This document shows positions 12,790-26,467 of a stretch of DNA of 56,546 nucleotides, piece after piece. The stretch is from Bacteriovoracaceae bacterium. GTDB taxonomy: Bacteria > Bdellovibrionota > Bacteriovoracia > Bacteriovoracales > Bacteriovoracaceae. Under the pieces are notes generated by a model. The model saw nothing but the letters and a program-made list of their open reading frames with translations, ran no database searches and was not told the origin of the DNA. The position numbers and the translations under genes are program-made. Every line of letters begins with the position of its first letter. Position 1 is the first letter of the stretch. The stretch is from assembly GCA_041586955.1 (NCBI GenBank), contig JBFGZE010000011.1:1-56546 (forward strand), in the 5' to 3' direction.

Positions 12790-15708
12790 CTAGTCGGGCA
12801 TTAAACGCTGCAAGCTTACGACTTGAATGACAAACGGGCCATGGTCTATTTGCACCTTTCCTTTGATGAGAAAGCATCCTCCTAAAAATAAAAGATCGCG
12901 ATGAGCATAATAGCTTTCTGGGAAAAAAACTGTTTCAAAAATATCGGAATGATCACTAAAGCTGACGAAGCACATCTCTTGTTTATTTCTTGTACGAACT
13001 TTTTTTTGATGCACTTTTTTTCCAAAAAGGGTGATTTCCTTGCCAATGAATTGAGCAATTTGGTCAGCATCAACGACAGGCGTTTCTTTTAATTGTTTAT
13101 GGTAGAGATAGTGGCGAGAAAATGTCATGGCGCCATGAAGGTATTCGAGTTCCCAGCGGATTAAAAGGTGGGGAGCGTATTTTTTTACGGGGGGAAGTGT
13201 GATGGTATGGGGTTTGTTTTGATGATAATGGGAATAGATTTCCCACATATGGTGGGAGAGTTGAGGTGTCGCTGAAAGATTATTGGCAAGAGGGCGCAGG
13301 GCGCGAGACATGACTAAGATCCGGGCCTCTTTTTTTTGAGGTCGAACTCTGATCAGAAAATCGCGAAGGTTGATAAAAGGGCCATGGGTCTCTCTTTCTT
13401 GAATAATCTTGTCGATGCATTCTTGTCGCAATCCTTTTATTTGTGATAGACCGATACGAATCGTTTTTCCGAGGCCAATGAAGTGGTATTCACTTAAATT
13501 AATATCGGGTGGTAGAATGCTCAGGCCCATTCGCCGCGCTTCATCGAGATAATCTTCAGTAGAATAAAATCCCCCGCGATTGGATATTACTGCTGCCATA
13601 AACTCCGCTGGGTAATGGCATTTGAGATAGGCCGATTTATAGGAGACAAGGCAATAACTGGCACTATGGGGTTTACAAAATGAATAACCCGCAAAACTCA
13701 TAATCATCTCCCAAATCTTATCGATAGTGCTAAAATCAATTTTTTTGCGATGGGCATTTTGGTAAAATTTGTCTTTAAAAAAGATCAAACGCTTTTCTTT
13801 ATGTTTTTTTGTCAAAACTTTTCGTAATTCATCACCTTCGGCGGGGGAAAAATCGGCCAACTTCATGGCGGTAAGAGTGACTTGTTCTTGATAAATCATG
13901 ATGCCATAGGTATCGCTTAAAACATCGGCCAAAAGAGGATGGAGGTGTGTATATTTTTTTCCACGGATACGAAGAGCGATTTCATTAGAAAAATTTTTGG
14001 CAGCAGGGCGAATGACCGAGCCTGCAATAATATTATGCTCAAACTCACCGCTTTGTTGTTTCTTGAGATAGAGTCGTGTCCCGGGAGACTCGATATAAAA
14101 ACAACCCATGGTATCACCGGTGATCATTATGTTCTTCGTCTGTTCGTCATTGATAGGGTTAAAAGTGGTATAACAGAGGGTTTGATTATAATGGGTGTTA
14201 ATATGATGGATGGCATCGCGAATAACGGCGAGAGAGCGGTTTCCTAGTAGGTCAATTTTAACGAGACCTGCATCCTCTGCTTGATCTTTTTCCCATTGAA
14301 TAATGGGAACGCCTTTCCTGGCCATCTCAATAGGGACATAATTTTCAATGGGCCCGGGAGTTATGACAATACCTCCACAATGTACCGACAGATGGTTGAG
14401 TACGCCCTCAATTTCTTGGGCATGGGCGATAATCTCTTGCCATTGAGAATTGAGTTCTAGATTCGGGAGGCGCTCTGTAATATAATTGATTTCATCAGAG
14501 GGGATACCATAAACCTTGGCAACCTCTCGAATTGCCGATGCCCCTCGTAGAAAATTATGATTGGCGACCATCGCCGCTTGGCCTGGATATTTATCAAAAA
14601 CATAATCAAGAATTTTATCACGATCATCCCAAGGGAAATCAATATCAATATCCGGGAGGTCGCGGCGTTCTTCGTTGAGAAAACGCTCAAAAAAGAGATT
14701 ATGCGCGATGGGATCAACATGGGTAATACCTAAGAGATAGCAAATAATACTGGCAGCACCTGAGCCACGGCCACAATGGATAGGCGCTTGAGAGACAATA
14801 TCGGCGACCATTAGAAAATAAGATGGGTAACCTTTTTTGATAATGAGATTGAGCTCCTTTTCAATACGATTAAAAACTTTTCGCTGCAAGGTCAAATCGA
14901 GATGAGGGTAGCGCCAGGGAACCTTTTGATAAGTGAGCTCCTTTAACAAGGTCGCACTTTGTACATCATCAAATTGTCGATATTGGGGAAAAAGAACTTG
15001 CTCTTGGTACCAATCTTGTTGGCACAACGAGGCAGCAAGATAAGTATTTTCCACTGCCTGTGGGTAGAGGTGAAAGTCGCGTTTAATTTGTTCCTTATGA
15101 GGGAAGGCATGCTTTTCAAAGCTCGCTAGGCGGGCGTGATGAAGAGTACTATTATTTTTAATGGCCTTAAGAAGATTGAGATAAAAGCTATTGGTTTTAG
15201 GCAGACGTTTAATACGATATGTTCCGATAATTGGGATTTTGTGTTCTTGAGACCACTGTGTATCACGATGGTTAAATTGCCCAGGCGTCAATTCATAGTA
15301 GAGGAAGTCTGTCCCTTCTTGCGATTTGAGCGCGAGGAGAAGTTCTTTTTGATCACTAAAAAAAAGGCAATCATTTTTGTATTGGTGGATATAGTGAATG
15401 AATTGCTTACGACTTAAGCTGCCTTTATGAAGATGGGAAAGGATGAGGCATAGACCTTGAAAGCCTTTTTGGTTGCGGCAGAGGTAGATTCCTCGGGTGG
15501 CAGTATCGAGAATAATCTCACTACCAATAATCGCCTTGATTTTTTTTTCCTTGGCGATTTTCATAAAATGAACGGCACCATAGAGAGCATTGGTATCTGT
15601 TAAGGCCAAAGCGCTGTGCCCTTCTTTTTTTGCATGTTGAATGAGATCTTCTGGCGTTGCAATCGCCTCAAGTGGCGAATAATGGGAGTGAGTATGGAGC
15701 TGAATCAT
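12790..15708 (-). CDS. dnaE2: Error-prone DNA polymerase III alpha subunit (DnaE2/ImuC-type)
   Basis: PHP domain (HTHSHYS, ALTD), GRGSGA, FERFL, PDIDIDF, KIDLLG, YSFCKPHS and an OB fold. Short (972 aa) and coupled to an ImuB-like gene. Confidence 0.9.
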   Translation of the reverse strand: MIQLHTHSHYSPLEAIATPEDLIQHAKKEGHSALALTDTNALYGAVHFMKIAKEKKIKAIIGSEIILDTATRGIYLCRNQKGFQGLCLILSHLHKGSLSRKQFIHYIHQYKNDCLFFSDQKELLLALKSQEGTDFLYYELTPGQFNHRDTQWSQEHKIPIIGTYRIKRLPKTNSFYLNLLKAIKNNSTLHHARLASFEKHAFPHKEQIKRDFHLYPQAVENTYLAASLCQQDWYQEQVLFPQYRQFDDVQSATLLKELTYQKVPWRYPHLDLTLQRKVFNRIEKELNLIIKKGYPSYFLMVADIVSQAPIHCGRGSGAASIICYLLGITHVDPIAHNLFFERFLNEERRDLPDIDIDFPWDDRDKILDYVFDKYPGQAAMVANHNFLRGASAIREVAKVYGIPSDEINYITERLPNLELNSQWQEIIAHAQEIEGVLNHLSVHCGGIVITPGPIENYVPIEMARKGVPIIQWEKDQAEDAGLVKIDLLGNRSLAVIRDAIHHINTHYNQTLCYTTFNPINDEQTKNIMITGDTMGCFYIESPGTRLYLKKQQSGEFEHNIIAGSVIRPAAKNFSNEIALRIRGKKYTHLHPLLADVLSDTYGIMIYQEQVTLTAMKLADFSPAEGDELRKVLTKKHKEKRLIFFKDKFYQNAHRKKIDFSTIDKIWEMIMSFAGYSFCKPHSASYCLVSYKSAYLKCHYPAEFMAAVISNRGGFYSTEDYLDEARRMGLSILPPDINLSEYHFIGLGKTIRIGLSQIKGLRQECIDKIIQERETHGPFINLRDFLIRVRPQKKEARILVMSRALRPLANNLSATPQLSHHMWEIYSHYHQNKPHTITLPPVKKYAPHLLIRWELEYLHGAMTFSRHYLYHKQLKETPVVDADQIAQFIGKEITLFGKKVHQKKVRTRNKQEMCFVSFSDHSDIFETVFFPESYYAHRDLLFLGGCFLIKGKVQIDHGPFVIQVVSLQRLMPD

Positions 15709-16889
15709 TTTAGAAATGATCCGCCTAAGGAAATATTCGCACCAAGTTTTTGTTTAATTTGATCAATTGTGTCGATTAATTGTTTTGATTTATCACTCTC
15801 TTGGAAGAGTGTTAATTGTTGAGCATATTGCCCTAAATGATGGCATTCAATGGAGAGATAACGCAGGGAAACGCGGCGAGAGTAGAGTTTGTTAAACATT
15901 GATTTGAGTAAATCGCCGACTTCTTGTGGGTATTGAAAGGGGGTGGTTAATACCTGGGACTTTGAGGCATATTGGTAATCAGCGTAGCGCAGACCCAAAA
16001 CTAATTGTCCGGCAAAGAGCTGACGAGACCTCAGTTGATGGCCAATCTTATCTAATAATTGCTCGAGATAACGGTGTAAAAAAGAAAGATTATTTGTGGG
16101 TTTATTAAGAATGATCTCCTCTAAAAGCATATTTTTTTGATGAGGAGGGCAAATCGGGCGGTAATCTATTCCACGCGCCATTTGAAAGACTCTTTGCGCC
16201 TCTTTTTGAAAGATAATATCGAGATGATCTAAATGGAGGAGGCGGATATCTTCCACTAAGTCCAAACATAATTCTTCAAGGGTATTGGTGCATTGGCGTT
16301 GGTTGCGCTTAAGAAGGTCCTGTACTGCTGGTAAAACAATATGGGGTAGGGGAGAAAGGAATTTTTTTTCATCGCCAATCTTAACGAGTCTTAAATCTCT
16401 TTCCAGAGTGATGGTTTTCGCTGCTGTCTTAGAGATAAGTTTGTTAAGGCCAAGGCCTATGGAAGATTCAAGTTTAAAGGATTGATGGACGTCATTCTTT
16501 AGTTTGAAGGAGAAGTCTTCCATAGGCCCGTATAAGGCCTCCATACCGGTATAATCGAAATATATTTTGCCATTGCGCTCGAATTCAAAAAGCGGCAACT
16601 TCTTGGCAAAGAGCTGGAAGAGCTTCCGATTGACGCGGTTGTAGAGGTCAGGGTTTGGTTCAATGATTTTCAGACGGCGGCATTGTTTTTTGGCCATCGA
16701 AATAGGCATACCTTTATAAATACCTTCTTCCTTGGCCTGGTCAGAAACTGACCAAATAAGGGCCTTATCGCTATTGTGAGGCGCCACCGCCAAGGCACAT
16801 TGCCGAATATTGGGGTCAATGGCCTGCTCCACGGCGATGGGGAAATGGGGAATATTAAAATAGCCTACGGCCTGCTGCTTTAGAGTCAT
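15705..16889 (-). CDS. imuB: ImuB-like, probably catalytically inactive Y-family polymerase
   Basis: Y-family fold (GIYKGM, SIGLGLNKLISK, ARGID, LRYAD). The catalytic DxD and DE positions read NIPHF and NGKIYFD. Clamp-binding motif QLTLF. 4-bp overlap with dnaE2. Confidence 0.85.
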   Translation of the reverse strand: MTLKQQAVGYFNIPHFPIAVEQAIDPNIRQCALAVAPHNSDKALIWSVSDQAKEEGIYKGMPISMAKKQCRRLKIIEPNPDLYNRVNRKLFQLFAKKLPLFEFERNGKIYFDYTGMEALYGPMEDFSFKLKNDVHQSFKLESSIGLGLNKLISKTAAKTITLERDLRLVKIGDEKKFLSPLPHIVLPAVQDLLKRNQRQCTNTLEELCLDLVEDIRLLHLDHLDIIFQKEAQRVFQMARGIDYRPICPPHQKNMLLEEIILNKPTNNLSFLHRYLEQLLDKIGHQLRSRQLFAGQLVLGLRYADYQYASKSQVLTTPFQYPQEVGDLLKSMFNKLYSRRVSLRYLSIECHHLGQYAQQLTLFQESDKSKQLIDTIDQIKQKLGANISLGGSFLK

Positions 16890-18652: not shown

Positions 18653-19336
18653 ATGCTAGATATTTTCTCCCTTGAGGCAACAGCAATCAATCCGACGTTA
18701 ATTTCGATCATATACTCGATCTGCTTATCCTTTATATTATCGACCTCTATTGCTCTGACTTATCAGAAGACGTTTCAGGGACTGAGCTATTCGCGAAATT
18801 TTATTCAAGCAATGATTTTAAGTAGTATTGTCACCGCTATTGCTATGCAGGCCATCGGTGATAATTTGGCACGGGGAATGGGAATGATGGGTGCCTTGGC
18901 AATTATTCGCTTTCGCTCTTCTTTGAAAGATCCAAAGGATATGATTTATATCTTTGTGTGTCTTTCATTGGGGATCGCATGTGGTGTATATTCCTACTCG
19001 ATTGCAATTGTTGGTACAATTGGGTTTGTCGTCATTTCTATCATTTTGTACCACGTTCCTTTTGCGAAAACGAGCCACTTCGATGGACTATTGCGCTTTA
19101 ATGTCGATAGCAACGAGGGCAAGAATCAGCAATTAGAAACGATCCTATCAAATAATTGTGATCTATTCGCTCTTGTGACTTTAAGGGAAGTGGCCCAGGG
19201 CAGTCGCTTAGACTATGCCTATCAAGTAAAAATTAAAAATAATTCTACTTATCAGAAATTTATGCACGAACTCCAAAAGATTGAATCTATCCGTGGGCTT
19301 AATTTAATGCTCCAAGAGTCAACGGTAGAAGTCTAA
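18653..19336 (+). CDS. DUF4956 membrane protein
   Basis: IGDNLARGMGMMGALAIIRFRSSLKDPKD, several TM helices and a soluble C-terminal domain. Confidence 0.88.
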   Translation: MLDIFSLEATAINPTLISIIYSICLSFILSTSIALTYQKTFQGLSYSRNFIQAMILSSIVTAIAMQAIGDNLARGMGMMGALAIIRFRSSLKDPKDMIYIFVCLSLGIACGVYSYSIAIVGTIGFVVISIILYHVPFAKTSHFDGLLRFNVDSNEGKNQQLETILSNNCDLFALVTLREVAQGSRLDYAYQVKIKNNSTYQKFMHELQKIESIRGLNLMLQESTVEV

Positions 19337-19351
19337 AGAGAGGATTGAACA

Positions 19352-20227
19352 ATGAAAATGATGAAGCAATATTCGATCAAGGAAATTTTTCTTTTTGTGG
19401 CCAGTTATAAGGTACTCGCGGTTTCCTGGGGGCTTGCCTTATTTGGGGTGATTTATATGAGCTATTCGGCCAAAACAATGTTTAGTTATTTTGGGGTCGC
19501 GGAGAGCAGGGAAGTCAATATTAGTTCAAAGCATCCTGTGTCGATTAAACAGGTTCATGTTATTTCTGGTCAAAGAGTAGGACAAGGGCAATTAATTTTA
19601 GAATTAGAGCGACCTGATTTGGCGCTACAAATTAACCTCATGACAAGTGAATTAAAGGATCTTGAATCACAATTGCGAGTTAATAATATTCTTCATAAAG
19701 AGATTGAATCGATCCGCTTTGCAAGAGTTCGCGGAGAGGAGAGCAATTCTAACCCCATTATAAATCAAATTGACCAATTGAAGAAACGCTTAAATTCACT
19801 AAAAGAAGAAGATAAGAATTTGAAAATTTATTCTCAATTTGAAGGTAAAGTGGGATCCATCAACTTTAAACCAGGAGAGGAAGTTTCTCCTTTTACCACA
19901 ATTATGTCTTTGCACGGATTTAATCCGAGTTATATTAAAGGTATGATTCACGAACGAATTCATCATAAGGCCTATAAGGGTCAAGAAGTGAAAATTATTT
20001 CTTTAAGTGACCCTGACAAATTCGTCATGGCCCAAGTGGTGAGTGTCGGTTCTCGTATTATTCCATTTCCAAGCCGTTTGCAGAAAACGGGGACGGCAGA
20101 GACATGGGGACGGGAAATATTAATTGAAATCCCAACTCAAAATGCCTTTTTATTGGGAGAAAAAGTTTATATCAAAACCCAAGCTAAAAAAGCGGGTGTT
20201 ATTAATAAAATTGCAGAAAGAATCTAA
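19352..20227 (+). CDS. HlyD-family periplasmic adaptor (membrane fusion protein)
   Basis: N-terminal TM, lipoyl halves (VHVISGQRVGQGQLILEL / KPGEEV), coiled coil and GEKV beta-barrel end. Confidence 0.85.
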   Translation: MKMMKQYSIKEIFLFVASYKVLAVSWGLALFGVIYMSYSAKTMFSYFGVAESREVNISSKHPVSIKQVHVISGQRVGQGQLILELERPDLALQINLMTSELKDLESQLRVNNILHKEIESIRFARVRGEESNSNPIINQIDQLKKRLNSLKEEDKNLKIYSQFEGKVGSINFKPGEEVSPFTTIMSLHGFNPSYIKGMIHERIHHKAYKGQEVKIISLSDPDKFVMAQVVSVGSRIIPFPSRLQKTGTAETWGREILIEIPTQNAFLLGEKVYIKTQAKKAGVINKIAERI

Positions 20228-20240
20228 GAAGGTTTTGAGA

Positions 20241-21443
20241 ATGATCGAGAGATATAGAAATGTCATTATTTGGAGCTTGCTCGTCACATTAGGTCCCATC
20301 GCTACAGTCGCTGCCAATACCTTAGATGATTTATTGGCCAGTAAGAAAGGCCTTTTCCCCGCTTCCGGAGCTCAGACAATTAAAGACTATTCAATTCCCA
20401 TGGTTGAAAAATTGGAGCTGGAAGTAAAAACCAAAGAAGACATTGAAGAAAAATTTGAAATGAAGAAACATTTAACGGTTCGTATTGCGCCAAAGAATTT
20501 ATGGCAATATCGCCTTGAAAAAAATATTTATCGTCTCAATAATCAAAAGATTAAGGAGATGAGTAATACTTATAAAAACTCTTATTATGCGAGTATTTAT
20601 CAAAATTACCTAAACTATTTAGTGGCAAAGGAAAAAATTCAAACAACGGATACTCTAGTGAAAGTATATGGAGACCTTTTAAAGGTTTATCAGGGGGAAT
20701 CTCGTGATGGGCAAGAAAAGGCGATGCGTGTTTTGCGGGTTCGTGGGGACCTTGAATTAGCAAAAGTTGAGTTATCCACGGAGGAGAGAAGGTTGGAAAC
20801 TCTTGCTGAAAAATTGGGAATTGAAAAGACGGATGATCAATTTGCGCAATATGACCTCGCACCTATTGAACAGGCGCTCAAGGACGAAGGTGATCATCGC
20901 CAATTTAAACATACTTTAGAAATCGAGCAAAAATTGGCGCAACATAAATTTGAATTGGAAAAGAATGAAAGATACCAGGTCATGAATCATGTTGATGTCT
21001 CCATTGACCGTACAAATAAAGGGGACACAAAAACGGCACTATCCTTTCGCTTTCAATTACCATTCATCTCCCAAGGGGGACAGAACTTACAAGAAAAGGC
21101 CATGGATTATTATAAATCAAAAATGGGAAATCATCTGGCCATGGAAAAATTTCAATTAGAATTAAAAGAATATAAAAGGGGAATGGAAAGAGGTCGAGAT
21201 GCTCTTAATAAATTGGGACTTAATAGTTTAACCAAAGCATATGAAAAGCTTGTACGATTATTTAAGAGACCAAATCTCAAAGAAACCCAGCGGATCCTTG
21301 AAATCAAGGAAACGATTGAGAAAATGAAATTAAGACGCTTGGAGTTGAAGCATAGGGTTTATCAGGACTATATTACTTGGCTCTCGATTCAATCAAAGTT
21401 TTCTGATAGCGAAGGCCGCAATTATCTGGTGAAATATGAGTGA
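20241..21443 (+). CDS. Probable TolC-like outer membrane factor
   Basis: Signal peptide from ATG 20241; two long helical repeats separated by beta hairpins (LSFRFQLPF). Sits between the HlyD and VTC genes. Confidence 0.6.
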   Translation: MIERYRNVIIWSLLVTLGPIATVAANTLDDLLASKKGLFPASGAQTIKDYSIPMVEKLELEVKTKEDIEEKFEMKKHLTVRIAPKNLWQYRLEKNIYRLNNQKIKEMSNTYKNSYYASIYQNYLNYLVAKEKIQTTDTLVKVYGDLLKVYQGESRDGQEKAMRVLRVRGDLELAKVELSTEERRLETLAEKLGIEKTDDQFAQYDLAPIEQALKDEGDHRQFKHTLEIEQKLAQHKFELEKNERYQVMNHVDVSIDRTNKGDTKTALSFRFQLPFISQGGQNLQEKAMDYYKSKMGNHLAMEKFQLELKEYKRGMERGRDALNKLGLNSLTKAYEKLVRLFKRPNLKETQRILEIKETIEKMKLRRLELKHRVYQDYITWLSIQSKFSDSEGRNYLVKYE

Positions 21444-22251
21444 TTTACAAGCAGCATCACCTTTATTTTTTGAACGTTACGAGCTTAAATACCATGTTCC
21501 TCTGGATATGGTAGAAGAGATTTCAGCTTTTGTTGAAGTCTATTGTGCGCTTGATCCTTTTTCTGAAAAGTCACATGATCATTATTACGAAATTAATAAT
21601 TTATATTTTGATACACCAAACTTTCTATTCCGTGAAAGAAGAGTGGCTGGAATTGATGACCGCTTTAATGTTCGTATCCGATCATATGGTACTGATCCCA
21701 AACCTCCTTATTTTTTTGAAATAAAGCATAAAGTAAATGGAATAGTAAAAAAGAAAAGAGCAAAAGTTTATTCCGAAGAATGGGCCGATGCGCTCAAAAG
21801 AGAAGATTACTTTTACGAAGATGGTAAAGAGCCCACCATATCCACTAGTGATGACTATTACCAAGCATTTTTAAATACCGTATATTCCTATAATGCTGAA
21901 CCTAAGGTTTTTACTACTTATAGACGAAAGGCCTACTTATCTCTGGTTGATGATTATGCTCGTGTAACATTTGATCGTAATTTGAAGTTTATGAAATGCG
22001 AAGATTATACGTTACGACCAGTTAAGATGGATCTTTGTAATTATGATTGCCCTAATGTTTTTTCTAATGTTCATGAAAATGTCATTCTCGAATTAAAGTG
22101 TACGACTCGTGTCCCAATGTGGTTTATTGATCTTATTAGTTATTTTAACCTCAAGCGCATGAGCTTCTCTAAATACACCAACGCCATTGATGAGGTTTTA
22201 CATAATTCTTTTGTTTATCGCGCGGATCGCGAATCAATTATTAACCTCTAA
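21436..22251 (+). CDS. VTC-domain (polyphosphate polymerase-like, CYTH fold) protein
   Basis: RYELKY, LYFDTP, RIRSY, FEIKHK, YRRKAY, RVTFD, ILELK, FSKY. Confidence 0.9.
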   Translation: MSDLQAASPLFFERYELKYHVPLDMVEEISAFVEVYCALDPFSEKSHDHYYEINNLYFDTPNFLFRERRVAGIDDRFNVRIRSYGTDPKPPYFFEIKHKVNGIVKKKRAKVYSEEWADALKREDYFYEDGKEPTISTSDDYYQAFLNTVYSYNAEPKVFTTYRRKAYLSLVDDYARVTFDRNLKFMKCEDYTLRPVKMDLCNYDCPNVFSNVHENVILELKCTTRVPMWFIDLISYFNLKRMSFSKYTNAIDEVLHNSFVYRADRESIINL

Positions 22252-23069
22252 AAACTCATATTTTCTTTTTGATTGAGATCAATACTTAATTGAAAAGTAA
22301 GGGTGTTATCATCGGGGTTGATTTCTTCATAGGTCATGAATTGATCTTCAAGATCGGCCAATCTCGCTTTAAACTTTTCCATCATATCTAAATTAGATTT
22401 TAAAAATATAGTTCTATTATAAAAAGGGGAATCATTGTCTCCAAGCATTTCACGGTGCCTCTGTCGAATTACTTTCTCATGACCGGGGATAAATTTGATA
22501 TGTTGATTATTCGCCCAGACCTCTCCATCCATCATAGAAATTAAGTCTATATTGACCAAGTCCTGGAGAATAGTATTGAGGGACTCTCGTGCAATGCCTT
22601 TATTTTTGGCCATAAATTGAGCGAGAGAGACCTTTTTACCACTAAGTGTAAGGCATAAGAACGCCTGATAATAATAATAGTCTTGTAGGATGACCTTCAT
22701 CTGCTTCGCAGATAATTGGTATTGTCGGTGTTTATGGTAAATGGCCATTTGCTTTCTAAGACCTCGCTCTTGAGGGTTGATTGTATTTTGGCCATCCGTT
22801 TTACGTTTAAAAAATTGTAAAAGCTCCTCTTTTTGGATTTGAGATTCTAGATAGGAGGAGACAAAACTTTGGAAGTCTTGAACTTTAAGGTACTTGGCGA
22901 GAATTAGAACCGTTTCAAAAGTTGGTGTAATAAGACCCTTCTCAATTCTCGTGTAATTTGAGTAAGTGATCGTGAGTTCCGAATGCTCTTTGAGTCCATC
23001 ATGAAAAGCACGCGCATTTTGATGGCCAGCTTTGATTCTCAATGTTTTTAATAATTCACTAAATTGCAT
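22248..23069 (-). CDS. XRE-type HTH regulator (TIGR02147/DUF4423-like)
   Basis: LKTLR...YSNYTRIEKGLITP HTH plus a second winged helix; GAGG RBS before ATG 23069. Confidence 0.75.
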   Translation of the reverse strand: MQFSELLKTLRIKAGHQNARAFHDGLKEHSELTITYSNYTRIEKGLITPTFETVLILAKYLKVQDFQSFVSSYLESQIQKEELLQFFKRKTDGQNTINPQERGLRKQMAIYHKHRQYQLSAKQMKVILQDYYYYQAFLCLTLSGKKVSLAQFMAKNKGIARESLNTILQDLVNIDLISMMDGEVWANNQHIKFIPGHEKVIRQRHREMLGDNDSPFYNRTIFLKSNLDMMEKFKARLADLEDQFMTYEEINPDDNTLTFQLSIDLNQKENMSF

Positions 23070-23180
23070 AATCCTCAAATGTAAGAATTACAATGCTTCT
23101 TTGACTTTAAGCACTTACTCACTTAATTTCCCTATTCATACAACGCTTATTGCACAAAATGCAATCGGGATTGGGGAACT

Positions 23181-23504
23181 ATGAAATTTTTAATTTACTT
23201 TGCTTCTATTGTGATCCTTTTAAATGTCGATATCTATTCTCAGTCGGTAGATACTGGCAGTATTCAAGAGGAAATCCTTAGAGTTATTAAAAAATGGAAA
23301 GTAAAATCTTTTGCCGGTCCTCATCTCAAAAGGAAAGTGCGAGCTAAAATATGGCAAAAAATTGAAAATTATAAAGAAGAATGTGAAGAAAATGATGGCA
23401 CGTTTCGCTTGGTAAATTTATTTTACGAGGAAACCTTTGCCGTAGAGGCCGAGAAAATGAAAGTTTTCAAGGTCTCTGCTCATGTAGAATGTCAACTTCC
23501 TTAG
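23181..23504 (+). CDS. Hypothetical secreted protein
   Basis: Signal peptide, two Cys, GGGGA RBS; divergent from the regulator. Confidence 0.7.
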   Translation: MKFLIYFASIVILLNVDIYSQSVDTGSIQEEILRVIKKWKVKSFAGPHLKRKVRAKIWQKIENYKEECEENDGTFRLVNLFYEETFAVEAEKMKVFKVSAHVECQLP

Positions 23505-23526
23505 GGCCTAGGCCCTGGGGACTATG

Positions 23527-23586
23527 ACCCTTGAACGTACTTAGGATTTGTCCCCCCCTTCAAATTGTTCGGGTATGTTCAAGGGT
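23527..23586 (+). other. Long RNA-like stem-loop with C-rich loop
   Basis: ACCCTTGAAC/GTTCAAGGGT outer stem, G-U-rich middle, ATTTG/CAAAT inner stem, loop TCCCCCCCTT. Confidence 0.6.
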
Positions 23587-23619
23587 TTTATATTAAACCC
23601 TATTTAAACGGTCCACTAA

Positions 23620-23647
23620 TAAAGTTTCCTTGATTTGACTCCGATAA
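23620..23647 (+). promoter_or_regulatory. Sigma28 (FliA)-type promoter
   Basis: TAAAG-N15-TCCGATAA, 23 bp before the ATG at 23671. Confidence 0.75.
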
Positions 23648-23670
23648 ACCATTGAAGAGATGAGGTTTAG

Positions 23671-24195
23671 ATGAGAGTTATCCTTATAATATTTTGCGTT
23701 CTTATGCCTTATTGTTTGGAGGCATCGTGGATTAATACGGGTAAGCAACGCATCTTCTTTGATTTGCCAGAAGGCTGGCAGGCGAAAGAAGGAGTTTTTG
23801 ATATGCCTGTAGTGCTCTATGGACCTAAGCAGGGGAATGGGAGACCAACAATCGGTATTGTTCCCTTTGATCAAAAAGGAATTACCTTCAACCAAAAAGA
23901 AAATCTCGTCAATCAAAAGGATTATAGAAAATACCGTCGTGCTTGGGTTGAAAAATTAGATGGTACGGTCTTAGGCTTTCATCCCTATGAAGTTCAAAAA
24001 TGGAAACATGCTAAGGCGCATATTATAGGTCACCGTTTTAAATTGGGGCAGGTTGATTTTAGCGAGACGTCATTTTATGTCATCTGTGACGACGAATTAT
24101 TTCATATGAAATCTCTTTATCGAGAGAATGAATACCCCGATGGCCAAAAGGTCATTATGGACGTTTTAAAGAGTTTTAATTGTCATGGTTCGTAA
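23671..24195 (+). CDS. Secreted protein, possibly PsbP/DcrB-like fold
   Basis: Signal peptide, FDLPEGW N-terminal motif and SFNC end. Confidence 0.65.
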   Translation: MRVILIIFCVLMPYCLEASWINTGKQRIFFDLPEGWQAKEGVFDMPVVLYGPKQGNGRPTIGIVPFDQKGITFNQKENLVNQKDYRKYRRAWVEKLDGTVLGFHPYEVQKWKHAKAHIIGHRFKLGQVDFSETSFYVICDDELFHMKSLYRENEYPDGQKVIMDVLKSFNCHGS

Positions 24196-26467
24196 AAAAC
24201 TAATAATCTTTATTCAGCTGCTTGCGTTTATTGCTAATCCTCTTGGTGCTAAACCGGTGAGCGAGTCTGAAGCGTCCATTGATGGTGAGGAAGTCACAAT
24301 ATCGGCAACTATTTTGGAAATCGTGGCCCAGCAAGTTTTTCTGTGTAAAAACGCCGATGGTAGTTGGAAAAATGAAAAGATTAAGGAACCAGAAACAGGT
24401 GAAGAGATCGATTGCTTGGCCTTGGCCAGAGAAGAGTTTAATTTATTGAAAGAAAAACAAGGTGAAGATGGGGAAGTCTCTGCTCTAAGCTGTATAACGA
24501 GAGGTTGGTCAGTAAGGGAAAAAATGGACTTTGCCAAGCATCTTGAAACACTTGGAGATATTCAATTACCTTTATACCGCCATTTCGGGTGTCCAGGAAA
24601 AGATCAAACAGCAGTCAAATGCACCGCTGACTTGGCCTGTAATGTGGTAAAATCCTCCTTCATAGGTCCTTATTTAGTGGCGGATTTGGCCAGAAAGCTT
24701 GGGGCCAATACTCCTCGCTGTGAATCGAATTCCCAGAGTTCTTGCGTCAATGAATTACTTGTTGGTGTTATCAAAGATGTCCTTGTGAATATGGAGCTTA
24801 TTAAAGAGGTACCTAGCATTACTTGGAATGCCATTAAGGCAGGGAGTAATAAGGCCTGGGGGGGAATTAAATCTTTATTTGAAGATACAAAAGAATTGGA
24901 AGATGCTTCTTCATCGAAATTATTGGCACTCGAAAGTAAAGATGATTCTTTTTATGAAGAATGGATAAAGGACCCAGTGGACAAGGCCTTGAGTTGGGTG
25001 ACTAACCTTCTTGAGGTGACAGGGTCTCTTATTGCAGACTCCGTTCAAAATAATTTCGGTTGTGCTAAATGGTCTAGCACTCGTTATTTACCATTTGATG
25101 GTGAGACTCCTCAATGTGAAGAGCCGATCGTTAGTTTTGAATGCGCCACATGCTCTCAAAAATTGAACATGATGTGTGGGGTTGTCGGCCTTATTGGTGG
25201 TGAAGTTCTTACTATGTACTTAACCGGTGGTACTATTGGCCTGGCCAAGGCGAGCTTACAATCTTCAAAGGCCACTTTTGTCGCTGGCAAATTGTCTAAG
25301 GTTGGTCATTCTTTGGCGAAAACTAAAATAGGTCAAAGTGGCCTATGGGCGGGAAAACAAATTAGGGGTGGGATGCACCTATCGGCCAAGTTGGGAATGG
25401 GGTTGATTAAGCTCGGTGGAAATTGGGCCTTGAGAATAGGCAAAAAGACTATCCCGCTTAAACAGGACATTAAAAATGAATTATTAAAAGTTTTACTGAG
25501 TAAAGGAAAAAAGGTCGCGGTTAAAGTTGGGAAAGGGGCGATTTATATTCCCACCAAATATATTGAGCTTTTAGAGTTCGCCTACGTTAAGGGGCTTCAT
25601 GGATCACAGGCCCTCAAGCATTTAATTAACGCAAAAGGCATAGGGAAAAATGGTGTTGTAAAGCTTACTTCAGAAGACGTTATTATAGAGGGCATTAAGC
25701 GTAAGGAGCAATTTTCGGCCCATGTTAAGGCCTATGGCCATTACAAAAAAGATTTACAACGTAATTATAGCGCCTATAAAAATGCCATTAGAAAGGCCGT
25801 TCTTAAAGGAAAAGACGCCGATGATAAAGAGGTTCTTTATTATCTCACCCAAATCAGACAACTTGAATTAAGTGGCCATGAAATTATTAAGAATGTTTCA
25901 AAAGCTCAAGATATAACGGTCCTATCAACACCTTTAATACCTTTTAAGAAGGTAAAAATTTCATCTAAAGTCGCATCTCAAATAGGTTCGGGTAAATCCA
26001 TTAATATCACCTTAAAAAATGGCAAAAAGCTAGAGGGTCTCTTCTCTCATATTGGCAAAGACGGTAATATTTATTTTAAAGTAGGGGATGCAATTAAGCA
26101 TGTAAGCCCAGAGGATATTGTTACAATTGTGGGAGGGCTTAATCTCTTTAGGCGAGTTGGGAATACTATTATTATGGTGGATAAAGAAGAAACCATAAGC
26201 GCTGAGGTGCAGAAACCGGAAGATGTGGTTGCAACGCCAGAAGCACCAGAAAAGAAGGACTCTGATAAAAAGTCAAATAGAGCGGATGATAAAGAGAAAG
26301 AACCAGATAAAGTGCCAGATAAAGGGGCAGATAAAGAGGATAACAAAGACGAGGATTTGGGGGAGGAAACTCTCTTTAACGAGACGCCAGAACCATCATC
26401 TCTACCACCAATGCAACCGATACCTTATCGACCAGATCGCCTAATTATTAATCAGGGTATTTTTTAA
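24185..26467 (+). CDS. Large Cys-rich secreted hypothetical protein
   Basis: 760 aa: signal peptide, Cys-rich N-terminal half, Gly-rich hydrophobic segment, basic region, Sm-like segment and D/K/E low-complexity tail. Confidence 0.75.
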   Translation: MVRKKLIIFIQLLAFIANPLGAKPVSESEASIDGEEVTISATILEIVAQQVFLCKNADGSWKNEKIKEPETGEEIDCLALAREEFNLLKEKQGEDGEVSALSCITRGWSVREKMDFAKHLETLGDIQLPLYRHFGCPGKDQTAVKCTADLACNVVKSSFIGPYLVADLARKLGANTPRCESNSQSSCVNELLVGVIKDVLVNMELIKEVPSITWNAIKAGSNKAWGGIKSLFEDTKELEDASSSKLLALESKDDSFYEEWIKDPVDKALSWVTNLLEVTGSLIADSVQNNFGCAKWSSTRYLPFDGETPQCEEPIVSFECATCSQKLNMMCGVVGLIGGEVLTMYLTGGTIGLAKASLQSSKATFVAGKLSKVGHSLAKTKIGQSGLWAGKQIRGGMHLSAKLGMGLIKLGGNWALRIGKKTIPLKQDIKNELLKVLLSKGKKVAVKVGKGAIYIPTKYIELLEFAYVKGLHGSQALKHLINAKGIGKNGVVKLTSEDVIIEGIKRKEQFSAHVKAYGHYKKDLQRNYSAYKNAIRKAVLKGKDADDKEVLYYLTQIRQLELSGHEIIKNVSKAQDITVLSTPLIPFKKVKISSKVASQIGSGKSINITLKNGKKLEGLFSHIGKDGNIYFKVGDAIKHVSPEDIVTIVGGLNLFRRVGNTIIMVDKEETISAEVQKPEDVVATPEAPEKKDSDKKSNRADDKEKEPDKVPDKGADKEDNKDEDLGEETLFNETPEPSSLPPMQPIPYRPDRLIINQGIF

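Follow-up and report, generated by a model that had tools for sequence, protein, structure and literature searches.

A conserved cassette of DUF4956, HlyD-type adaptor, TolC-family channel and VTC enzyme genes in Bdellovibrionota, a possible polyphosphate exporter without a pump

Introduction

In the textbook view, bacterial inorganic polyphosphate is a product of PPK1 or PPK2 and stays inside the cytoplasm, and in a literature search of limited coverage no description was found of machinery which carries polyphosphate to the bacterial surface or into the medium. Here we surveyed and analyzed a cassette of four genes at positions 18653-22251 (+ strand) of a 56,546-nucleotide stretch of a Bacteriovoracaceae bacterium (contig JBFGZE010000011.1 of assembly GCA_041586955.1; the whole stretch is called the window). 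The cassette encodes, in this order, a DUF4956 membrane protein, a HlyD-type periplasmic adaptor, an outer-membrane channel and a VTC-domain enzyme, and these may together synthesize and export polyphosphate. The source genome has 3.46 Mb in 194 contigs and is estimated to be 88% complete, the window being its contig 11. The same literature search brought up no paper on this system or on any polyphosphate exporter. NCBI and UniRef name the Bdellovibrio orthologues singly, as DUF4956 domain-containing, as hypothetical or TolC family, and as polyphosphate polymerase domain-containing proteins.

The closest described relative of the enzyme is the eukaryotic VTC complex (yeast Vtc4/Vtc3/Vtc1; PDB 3g3q, 7ytj, 8i6v), which has a catalytic domain of the same family and whose tunnel residues align with those of the window protein. 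In the eukaryotic complex, synthesis from ATP in the cytoplasm is coupled to passage through a membrane channel, to which a positively charged path leads from the tunnel exit (PMC9911596), and the same logic is proposed here. The eukaryotic complex has SPX domains and DUF202/Vtc1-type three-helix subunits, neither of which was found in the four window proteins by hmmscan at E <= 0.1; its catalytic domain is tethered to a membrane domain, whereas that of the window is a separate soluble protein of 271 amino acids. Vtc4 has T198 where the window enzyme has E16, the membrane partner in the window is the unrelated five-helix DUF4956 protein with its ACT-like domain, and the window adds an adaptor and an outer-membrane channel for the second membrane, which eukaryotic VTC does not have.

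Tripartite efflux and type I secretion systems (AcrAB-TolC, MacAB-TolC, EmrAB-TolC, HlyBD-TolC and the AaeAB/MdtNOP type) share with the window a TolC-fold outer-membrane factor and an anchored HlyD-type adaptor. They have an ATP-binding cassette (ABC), resistance-nodulation-division (RND), major facilitator superfamily (MFS) or AaeB/PET transporter, whereas the window cassette has none inside it or conserved beside it. The candidate inner-membrane partner here is DUF4956, the sole nucleotide-using enzyme is the tunnel-fold VTC protein, and the adaptor is short (291 amino acids).

In synthase-dependent exopolysaccharide secretion (cellulose Bcs, poly-N-acetylglucosamine Pga, alginate, Pel) the polymer is threaded out while it grows, with no separate motor, and the likeness of these systems to the mechanism proposed below is in working principle only. 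They use a glycosyltransferase, a cyclic di-GMP receptor and a tetratricopeptide repeat (TPR)/beta-barrel porin, whereas the window has an adaptor/TolC-type duct; no glycosyltransferase, PilZ or TPR family was found by Pfam in the four cassette proteins.

Structure and distribution of the cassette

The four open reading frames (ORFs) are all on the + strand: gene 1 (DUF4956) at 18653-19336, 227 amino acids; gene 2 (adaptor) at 19352-20227, 291 amino acids; gene 3 (channel) at 20241-21443, 400 amino acids; and gene 4 (VTC) at 21436-22251, 271 amino acids. Genes 1 and 2 are separated by 15 nt and genes 2 and 3 by 13 nt, and genes 3 and 4 overlap by 8 nt, so that the tight, co-oriented coupling reported in the initial annotation agrees exactly with the ORF coordinates. 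The ATG of gene 3 is nested in a longer ORF starting with TTG (20124-21443), and a ribosome-site-like GAAGG is present upstream of the ATG. A Pfam scan of the window proteins found no ABC, RND or MFS gene in the operon, as had been claimed, nor any within about 4 kb of it. Promoter and terminator scans of the region gave no excess over shuffled sequence (14 sites against 14.7 +/- 4.0, and 1 site against 3.0 +/- 2.0, respectively), and the operon boundaries are therefore drawn from gene spacing only. Four DNA sequencing runs of one study contain this stretch or part of it, and no RNA run is listed for it.

Conservation was surveyed by a genome scan with gene 1 as query and one genome per GTDB species, which reaches close relatives only. 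It gave 58 loci, labelled Halobacteriovorax, Bacteriovoracaceae, Pseudobdellovibrio and Bdellovibrio and including cultured B. bacteriovorus strains; odd labels are carried by one Sulfitobacter metagenome-assembled genome (MAG) and by two contigs of one Proteobacteria MAG (L079 and L085). The cassettes were tallied by local searches, to which a second-round profile was added for the channel gene, which evolves fast. All four genes stand in the same order in 46 of the 58 loci, that is in 46 of the 48 evaluable ones, 10 loci being interrupted by a contig end. The median spacings across loci are +2.5, -4 and -4 nt. When the flanking ORFs were clustered, the four cassette genes alone were common to the loci, the flanks were lineage-specific, and no pump gene was conserved in the flanks of the 58 loci. 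The four-gene linkage, on which the initial annotation had staked its reading, is thus kept in 46 of 48 evaluable loci while the flanks change, and VTC and DUF4956 occur in these loci together with adaptor and outer-membrane factor and no conserved pump. Such an arrangement is far beyond chance.

Pairwise identities of the four proteins, compared over 45 cassettes, correlate with r 0.90-0.95, and the proteins are therefore inherited as a unit; since the rows are kin, this correlation speaks of co-inheritance and not of co-evolution. The mean identities in the same cassettes are 0.58 for DUF4956, 0.50 for VTC, 0.40 for the adaptor core and 0.21 for the channel. Among 41 related genomes a VTC gene is present in 10, and 4 of these 10 show the order DUF4956-adaptor-X-VTC; the source genome itself carries one DUF4956 gene and one VTC gene. 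We hold it very likely that the four proteins form one functional system.

Two loci of this survey deserve separate mention. The cassettes of the Sulfitobacter-labelled MAG (L035) and of a MAG labelled Halobacteriovorax (L034) are nearly identical, with end branches of 0.023, and wrong binning or labelling of the L035 contig is a more probable explanation than transfer to an alphaproteobacterium. In L084 (6950-7677) the DUF4956 gene is in two ORFs of 121 and 138 amino acids, in a cassette which is otherwise complete and has a short adaptor; the split comes either from a frameshift or from a fault in the assembly.

The four proteins

Gene 4 matches Pfam VTC with 150.9 bits (cut-off 23, E 5.5e-44) over profile positions 2-232 of 235. 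A single-sequence search of the PDB gave a weak Vtc2 match only; a profile of 35 VTC orthologues matched the Vtc4 catalytic domain (3g3q) with E 1.4e-21, and covered the inactive Vtc2/Vtc3 domains over part of the length only. Residues were mapped to Vtc4 by counting along the profile alignment to the full-length protein (8i6v_E). R14 (Vtc4 R196) is conserved in at least 90% of the 35 sequences, and the residues invariant in all 35 are E16 (T198), K18 (K200), R80 (R264), R82 (R266), K97 (K281), K106 (K294), Y162 (Y359), R164 (R361), R176 (R373), E219 (E426), K221 (K428), S245 (S457) and K246 (K458). Like R264, R266, E426 and K458, the Vtc4 residues K200, K281, Y359, R361, R373 and S457 belong to the tunnel. 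The initial annotation had described a VTC enzyme with basic tunnel motifs, and the alignment of the Vtc4 tunnel residues bears this out.

Vtc4 with R264A/R266A/E426N gives a catalytically impaired complex (PMC9911596). Among the tunnel enzymes assayed in PMC4641920, polyphosphate was made by Vtc4p only; Lys-458 is catalytic in Vtc4p, whereas a plant triphosphatase can do without the corresponding residue. According to the same paper, the hydrolytic tunnel enzymes have an acidic patch (Glu-2, Glu-4, Glu-90 and Glu-171 in plant TTM3) which binds a second, water-activating metal, and which is replaced in Vtc4p by basic residues. In motif register only, gene 4 is basic like Vtc4 at two of these acidic-patch positions, R14 and K221. 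We lean slightly towards gene 4 being an enzyme that makes polyphosphate.

In this genome, at 88% completeness, PPK1, PPK2 and CotH were not found, and VTC is for that reason the sole candidate polyphosphate synthase found in it; the Ppx-GppA family has three matches. PPK1 is present in 11 of the 41 related genomes, and is missing in 4 of the 5 cassette genomes of the window's family and also in most cassette-free genomes. The idea that the cassette compensates for a missing PPK1 was considered and rejected, there being no complementarity between PPK1 and the cassette.

Gene 1 matches Pfam DUF4956 (PF16316) with 52.9 bits (cut-off 30.6, E 4.6e-14). Its five predicted membrane helices (16-40, 48-68, 72-88, 94-111 and 115-134) are followed by a C-terminal ACT/ferredoxin-like domain at residues 145-220, which has a beta-alpha-beta-beta-alpha-beta pattern in the AlphaFold model (34 sequences, pLDDT, the predicted local distance difference score, 78.7). 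The MgtC/SapB family likewise has five membrane helices and then a small ACT-like cytoplasmic domain, but gene 1 stays below every curated cut-off for that family, both in Pfam (MgtC, 21.6 bits against 31.4, E 2.9e-4) and in NCBIfam (MgtC/SapB, PRK09977, 19.4 against 214, E 6.2e-4). In a wide VIA structure search, residues 140-227 matched ACT/ferredoxin-like domains with Z 9.4, and the C-terminal domain matched that of MgtC (2lqj) with Z 7.9 and a root-mean-square deviation of 3.2 over 87 residues. Foldseek with the gene 1 model gave weak ACT-like matches to the C-terminal domain only, and for the membrane part neither Foldseek nor the wide VIA search gave an interpretable structural match. 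The nearest named clusters in the protein atlas, DUF4956 excluded, are MgtC (0.75-0.79), which is a lead only. MgtC is a regulator of Mg2+/phosphate physiology and not a polymer channel, and no adaptor, channel or tunnel enzyme is known as its partner.

In the DUF4956 alignment Y37, G80, R86, F87, R88 and K92 are invariant, and D93 and P94 nearly so. Judged from loop charges, gene 1 is predicted to have its N-terminus outside and its C-terminus inside, by which both the ACT-like domain and the RFR...KDP motif would face the cytoplasm; a polyanion emerging from the VTC tunnel would come in on this basic side. A complex prediction of DUF4956 with VTC, both given as alignments, scored 0.01 against a mark of 0.32 in a run without controls, a value which counts neither for nor against a contact.

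Gene 3 belongs to no Pfam family, and its NCBIfam NodT match is faint (16.8 bits against a cut-off of 210); its N-terminus is signal-peptide-like with no lipobox cysteine. A word-indexed homologue search returned the query itself only, and an exhaustive HMMER search gave 7 relatives among 1.84 billion representatives, at 22-25% identity, 5 of the 7 being above the Pfam OEP cut-off. The AlphaFold model (12 sequences, pLDDT 78, predicted template modelling score 0.69) has a duplicated pattern of beta-hairpin and long helix, with two beta-hairpins. Among the Foldseek matches listed, all with E <= 0.001 are TolC-family outer-membrane factors (TolC, ST50, SilC, MtrE, CusC, VceC, CmeC, OprM and OprN), the best being 7ng9_A (E 1.1e-10), with template modelling scores of 0.57-0.64; the TolC, SilC, MtrE, CusC and OprM matches have E 1e-10 to 1e-7. 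By its model, gene 3 is a divergent TolC-family outer-membrane factor, so that the third gene, previously called a probable outer membrane factor, does model as one.

Gene 2 matches Pfam HlyD_D23 with 37.2 bits (cut-off 30, E 2.5e-9) and has an N-terminal membrane anchor, so it is read as a short HlyD-type membrane fusion protein. Its NCBIfam matches to RND_mfp (6.9e-13), MdtN, EmrA and HlyD are all below the cut-offs, Pfam did not detect a membrane-proximal domain, and a sequence search of the PDB gave no match at E <= 0.01. MdtN and EmrA are adaptors which work with partners other than RND pumps. Most orthologues of gene 2 are longer (548-607 amino acids) and join to the adaptor core a C-terminal domain of about 300 amino acids, a point absent from the initial annotation. 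In Pfam this extra domain weakly resembles DUF3616, Phytase-like, DUF6929 and DUF6910 (28 bits at best, cut-off 20.6), and in the protein atlas it adjoins clusters of DUF3616 and of DUF6929 (0.91-0.93); its likeness to propeller families which handle phosphate esters is suggestive only. Residues 15-285 of the short form align to 9-274 of a 583-amino-acid orthologue and then end, and with one query the extra domain was not found as a separate gene in this genome (88% complete). On a DUF4956+VTC tree, made by quick maximum likelihood only, the short form needs at least 3 gains or losses, and since the window also does without it the extra domain is considered accessory.

The predicted topology of the set places the VTC enzyme in the cytoplasm, anchors DUF4956 and the adaptor in the inner membrane, and has the channel behind a signal peptide.

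DUF4956 in metagenomes and its alternative partners

When metagenomes were scanned with the DUF4956 alignment, 80 loci came up, at identities of 67-28%. The gene detections in them, made with local profiles, are lower bounds, as many contigs are short. The adaptor was detected in 47 of these loci, adaptor and channel in 31, and adaptor, channel and VTC in 14; 21 have VTC without adaptor or channel, and in 12 DUF4956 is alone. With D for DUF4956, M for the adaptor, O for the channel and V for VTC, the orders include D-M-O-V as in the window, D-M-V-O (L092, L093 and L097) and M-O-V-D (L111), and in L114, L116 and L117 V stands about 1.5 kb beyond D-M-O. This variation in order points to selection on the gene set rather than on one arrangement.

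The D-M-O trio also recurs without VTC, which supports DUF4956 as the inner-membrane partner of adaptor and channel, and we regard this role as probable. The contigs of seven such trios encode proteins with type IX secretion tails, which points towards a spread beyond Bdellovibrionota. Beside the trio in L121, L126 and L133 are large CotH proteins with lamin-tail domains and type IX C-terminal sorting domains.

The converse case is seen in the phylum of the window itself, where L023, L024, L025 and L027 have VTC-DUF4956 without a duct and carry CotH kinase-like genes instead. VTC, DUF4956 and CotH moreover occur in the same 3 of 14 control genomes. The one printed mention of such sets which turned up describes them beside Gram-positive pel loci as cotH/poly-phosphate polymerase/DUF4956 (/DUF4832) accessory genes, of function untested there (Whitfield et al. 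2020, PMC7112168); they share the VTC-DUF4956 pair with the window but have CotH and no adaptor or channel, whereas in the window adaptor and channel replace CotH. DUF4956 is thus a hub, which partners the duct without VTC or VTC without the duct, and the window cassette has both. Both alternative accessory sets, adaptor with channel and exported CotH kinases, lie outside the cytoplasm.

As for the surroundings of these sets, those of L023 and L025 lie within surface-glycan clusters, with genes for glycosyltransferases, epimerases, methyltransferases and acyltransferases around them. The L025 set encloses a gene for a calcineurin-like phosphoesterase, and the L026 set has one next to it.

Proposed mechanism and alternative explanations

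In the proposed mechanism the cytoplasmic Vtc4-like tunnel enzyme (gene 4) would make inorganic polyphosphate from ATP, and the growing chain would pass by direct contact to the five-helix DUF4956 protein resembling MgtC (gene 1), which would receive it on its basic cytoplasmic face and, presumably as an oligomer, act as the conduit. The chain would then leave through a duct made of the membrane-anchored adaptor (gene 2) and the TolC-like channel (gene 3). Chain growth would supply the drive, aided by the inside-negative membrane potential acting on the polyanion, with no ABC, RND or MFS motor. As a whole chain, a polyphosphate synthase-translocase feeding a dedicated duct, this is the best-supported reading, though a tentative one, and the export of polyphosphate is likewise put forward as a possibility short of probable. 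The strict form of the idea, a polymerase-driven tripartite exporter in which the Vtc4-like enzyme and a DUF4956 oligomer replace the pump and extrude polyphosphate to the surface or the medium, is rather doubtful.

Several observations weigh against the proposed mechanism. Two evaluable loci break the set, L039 being without VTC and L082 without the channel gene. The cassette is also patchy: of 401 genomes sampled evenly across the phylum, 46 carry cassette-type DUF4956 (threshold E <= 1e-40), and they belong to 18 of the 204 genera; it is concentrated in a single family (28 of 53) and less frequent in the family of the window (8 of 100). Being so patchy, the cassette is not a core function. 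The DUF4956 monomer has five helices and no likeness to a solved channel, its soluble domain alone being matched. The channel proteins are not consistently basic, with a median isoelectric point of 7.8 and a range of 5.8-9.7, values which refer to the whole protein and not to the duct lining. The literature search of limited coverage brought up no study of what bacterial VTC or DUF4956 proteins do. In motif register only, the invariant E16 of gene 4 falls on the Glu-4 position of the hydrolytic enzymes, where Vtc4 has T198; as this Glu position belongs to the second metal, gene 4 may instead have hydrolase or other tunnel chemistry, and E16 is the chief ground for caution at the level of the sequence. 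Finally, in seven roomy metagenome loci with the D-M-O trio (L121, L126, L130, L133, L134, L135 and L141) no VTC gene was detected over up to 8 kb; the duct thus does not always have a polymerase beside it, and the claim that the polymerase must adjoin the duct is weakened since DUF4956 pairs with the duct without VTC.

The last two points also serve the alternative which survives best, namely that DUF4956, adaptor and channel form a new tripartite exporter for another cargo (Mg2+/Ca2+, a small anion or another polymer), which VTC regulates or energises. The VTC protein would in that case hydrolyse ATP, tri- or polyphosphate, or sense phosphate status, and the cargo would not be made by it. 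The architecture and weak sequence signal which DUF4956 shares with MgtC, and the ACT-like domain, typical of ligand-sensing modules, fit such a role as well. However, K246 (the counterpart of K458) is kept, R14 and K221 are basic where hydrolases are acidic (PMC4641920), VTC-DUF4956 pairs persist without the duct and so have a function of their own, and the genomes with the trio only may encode VTC elsewhere. We consider another cargo unlikely, though it is a serious alternative.

The extra domain of most adaptors, DUF3616/phytase-like, might bind or cleave a ligand rich in phosphate close to the inner membrane, and eukaryotic VTC delivers into a lumen and not across two membranes (PMC9911596, PMC10657179). 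Together with the channels not being consistently basic, this would suit a system in which VTC and DUF4956 load polyphosphate into the periplasm or envelope only, as into a vacuole or acidocalcisome, while adaptor and channel handle counter-ions, trimmed short chains or bound protein. We find this improbable, as the extra domain has changed at least 3 times and is absent in the window, hence not essential, and as tight four-gene coupling with co-inheritance is most simply one conduit. It is very improbable that the genes are co-located and work apart, with adaptor and channel serving a distant pump and VTC and DUF4956 acting in cytoplasmic phosphate metabolism, for although ABC transporter genes lie just downstream in L041, L042, L044 and L077 and outer-membrane factors are often shared between pumps (as TolC is), 46 of 48 evaluable loci are linked, with frames overlapping or near-touching and every flank different, the neighbouring ABC systems are unrelated in type (ABC-2/peptidase M1 fusion, double exporter, other-strand amino-acid importer), the adaptor is always sandwiched next to DUF4956, and the trio recurs in unrelated contigs without a pump.

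The exporter reading of the initial annotation, a polymerase in place of a pump, has accordingly fared unevenly: its folds, its linkage, the lack of a pump and the Vtc4 active-site set have held, while its simple version is weakened by E16, by the trios without VTC and by the five-helix DUF4956.

Neighbouring genes

Upstream of the cassette the window has genes for a metallo-beta-lactamase (MBL)-fold protein, a DUF2797 protein and a DnaE2-like/ImuB-like pair. The pair, at 12790-16889 (- strand), consists of a 972-amino-acid DnaE2-like polymerase (DNA_pol3_alpha, PHP and HHH_6) with a 394-amino-acid Y-family (IMS) protein directly before it, and resembles an imuB-dnaE2-type mutagenesis pair. 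These two genes were also considered as an RND pump with its adaptor, which was ruled out, the proteins being DnaE2-like and ImuB-like instead.

Downstream there are a convergent helix-turn-helix (HTH) gene, genes for small secreted proteins and, 4.2 kb off on the other strand, a cation-diffusion facilitator. The convergent gene (22248-23078, - strand) encodes 276 amino acids, matches HTH_3 and DUF4423 weakly, shares 4 nt with the end of the VTC gene, and is not kept beside the cassette in relatives. At 23181-26467 (+ strand) are three secreted-looking proteins of 107, 174 and 760 amino acids with no Pfam family, the last ending at its C-terminus in a long tail rich in Lys, Asp, Glu and Pro.

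In the relatives, the recurrent lineage-specific neighbours are an ABC ATPase with an ABC-2/peptidase-M1 fusion, a 1263-amino-acid double ABC exporter and response regulators; an amino-acid ABC importer and an MFS gene, both on the other strand, are found as well. In L041, L042 and L077 the VTC gene is followed by the ABC ATPase gene and then by an ORF of more than 1050 amino acids with an ABC-2-type membrane region and a peptidase M1 domain. These ABC-2/peptidase M1 ORFs are co-oriented with short-adaptor cassettes of one clade.

Significance

The cassette is a concrete candidate for experiment, with four small genes which also occur in cultured, non-pathogenic Bdellovibrio strains and with point mutants transferable from yeast Vtc4. 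If the proposed mechanism is true, it would be the first described bacterial polyphosphate secretion route and a fifth class of inner-membrane partner for TolC-type ducts; yeast-type polyphosphate synthesis would be operating in bacteria, and DUF4956, with by extension the MgtC fold, would gain a function. If the cargo is another one, the cassette would still be a tripartite exporter with an unprecedented inner-membrane module. Should polyphosphate indeed be the cargo, then beside exported CotH kinases it could be a phosphoryl donor outside the cytoplasm, where ATP is absent, and in predatory bacteria such a secreted polyanion could strip divalent cations from the envelopes of their prey.

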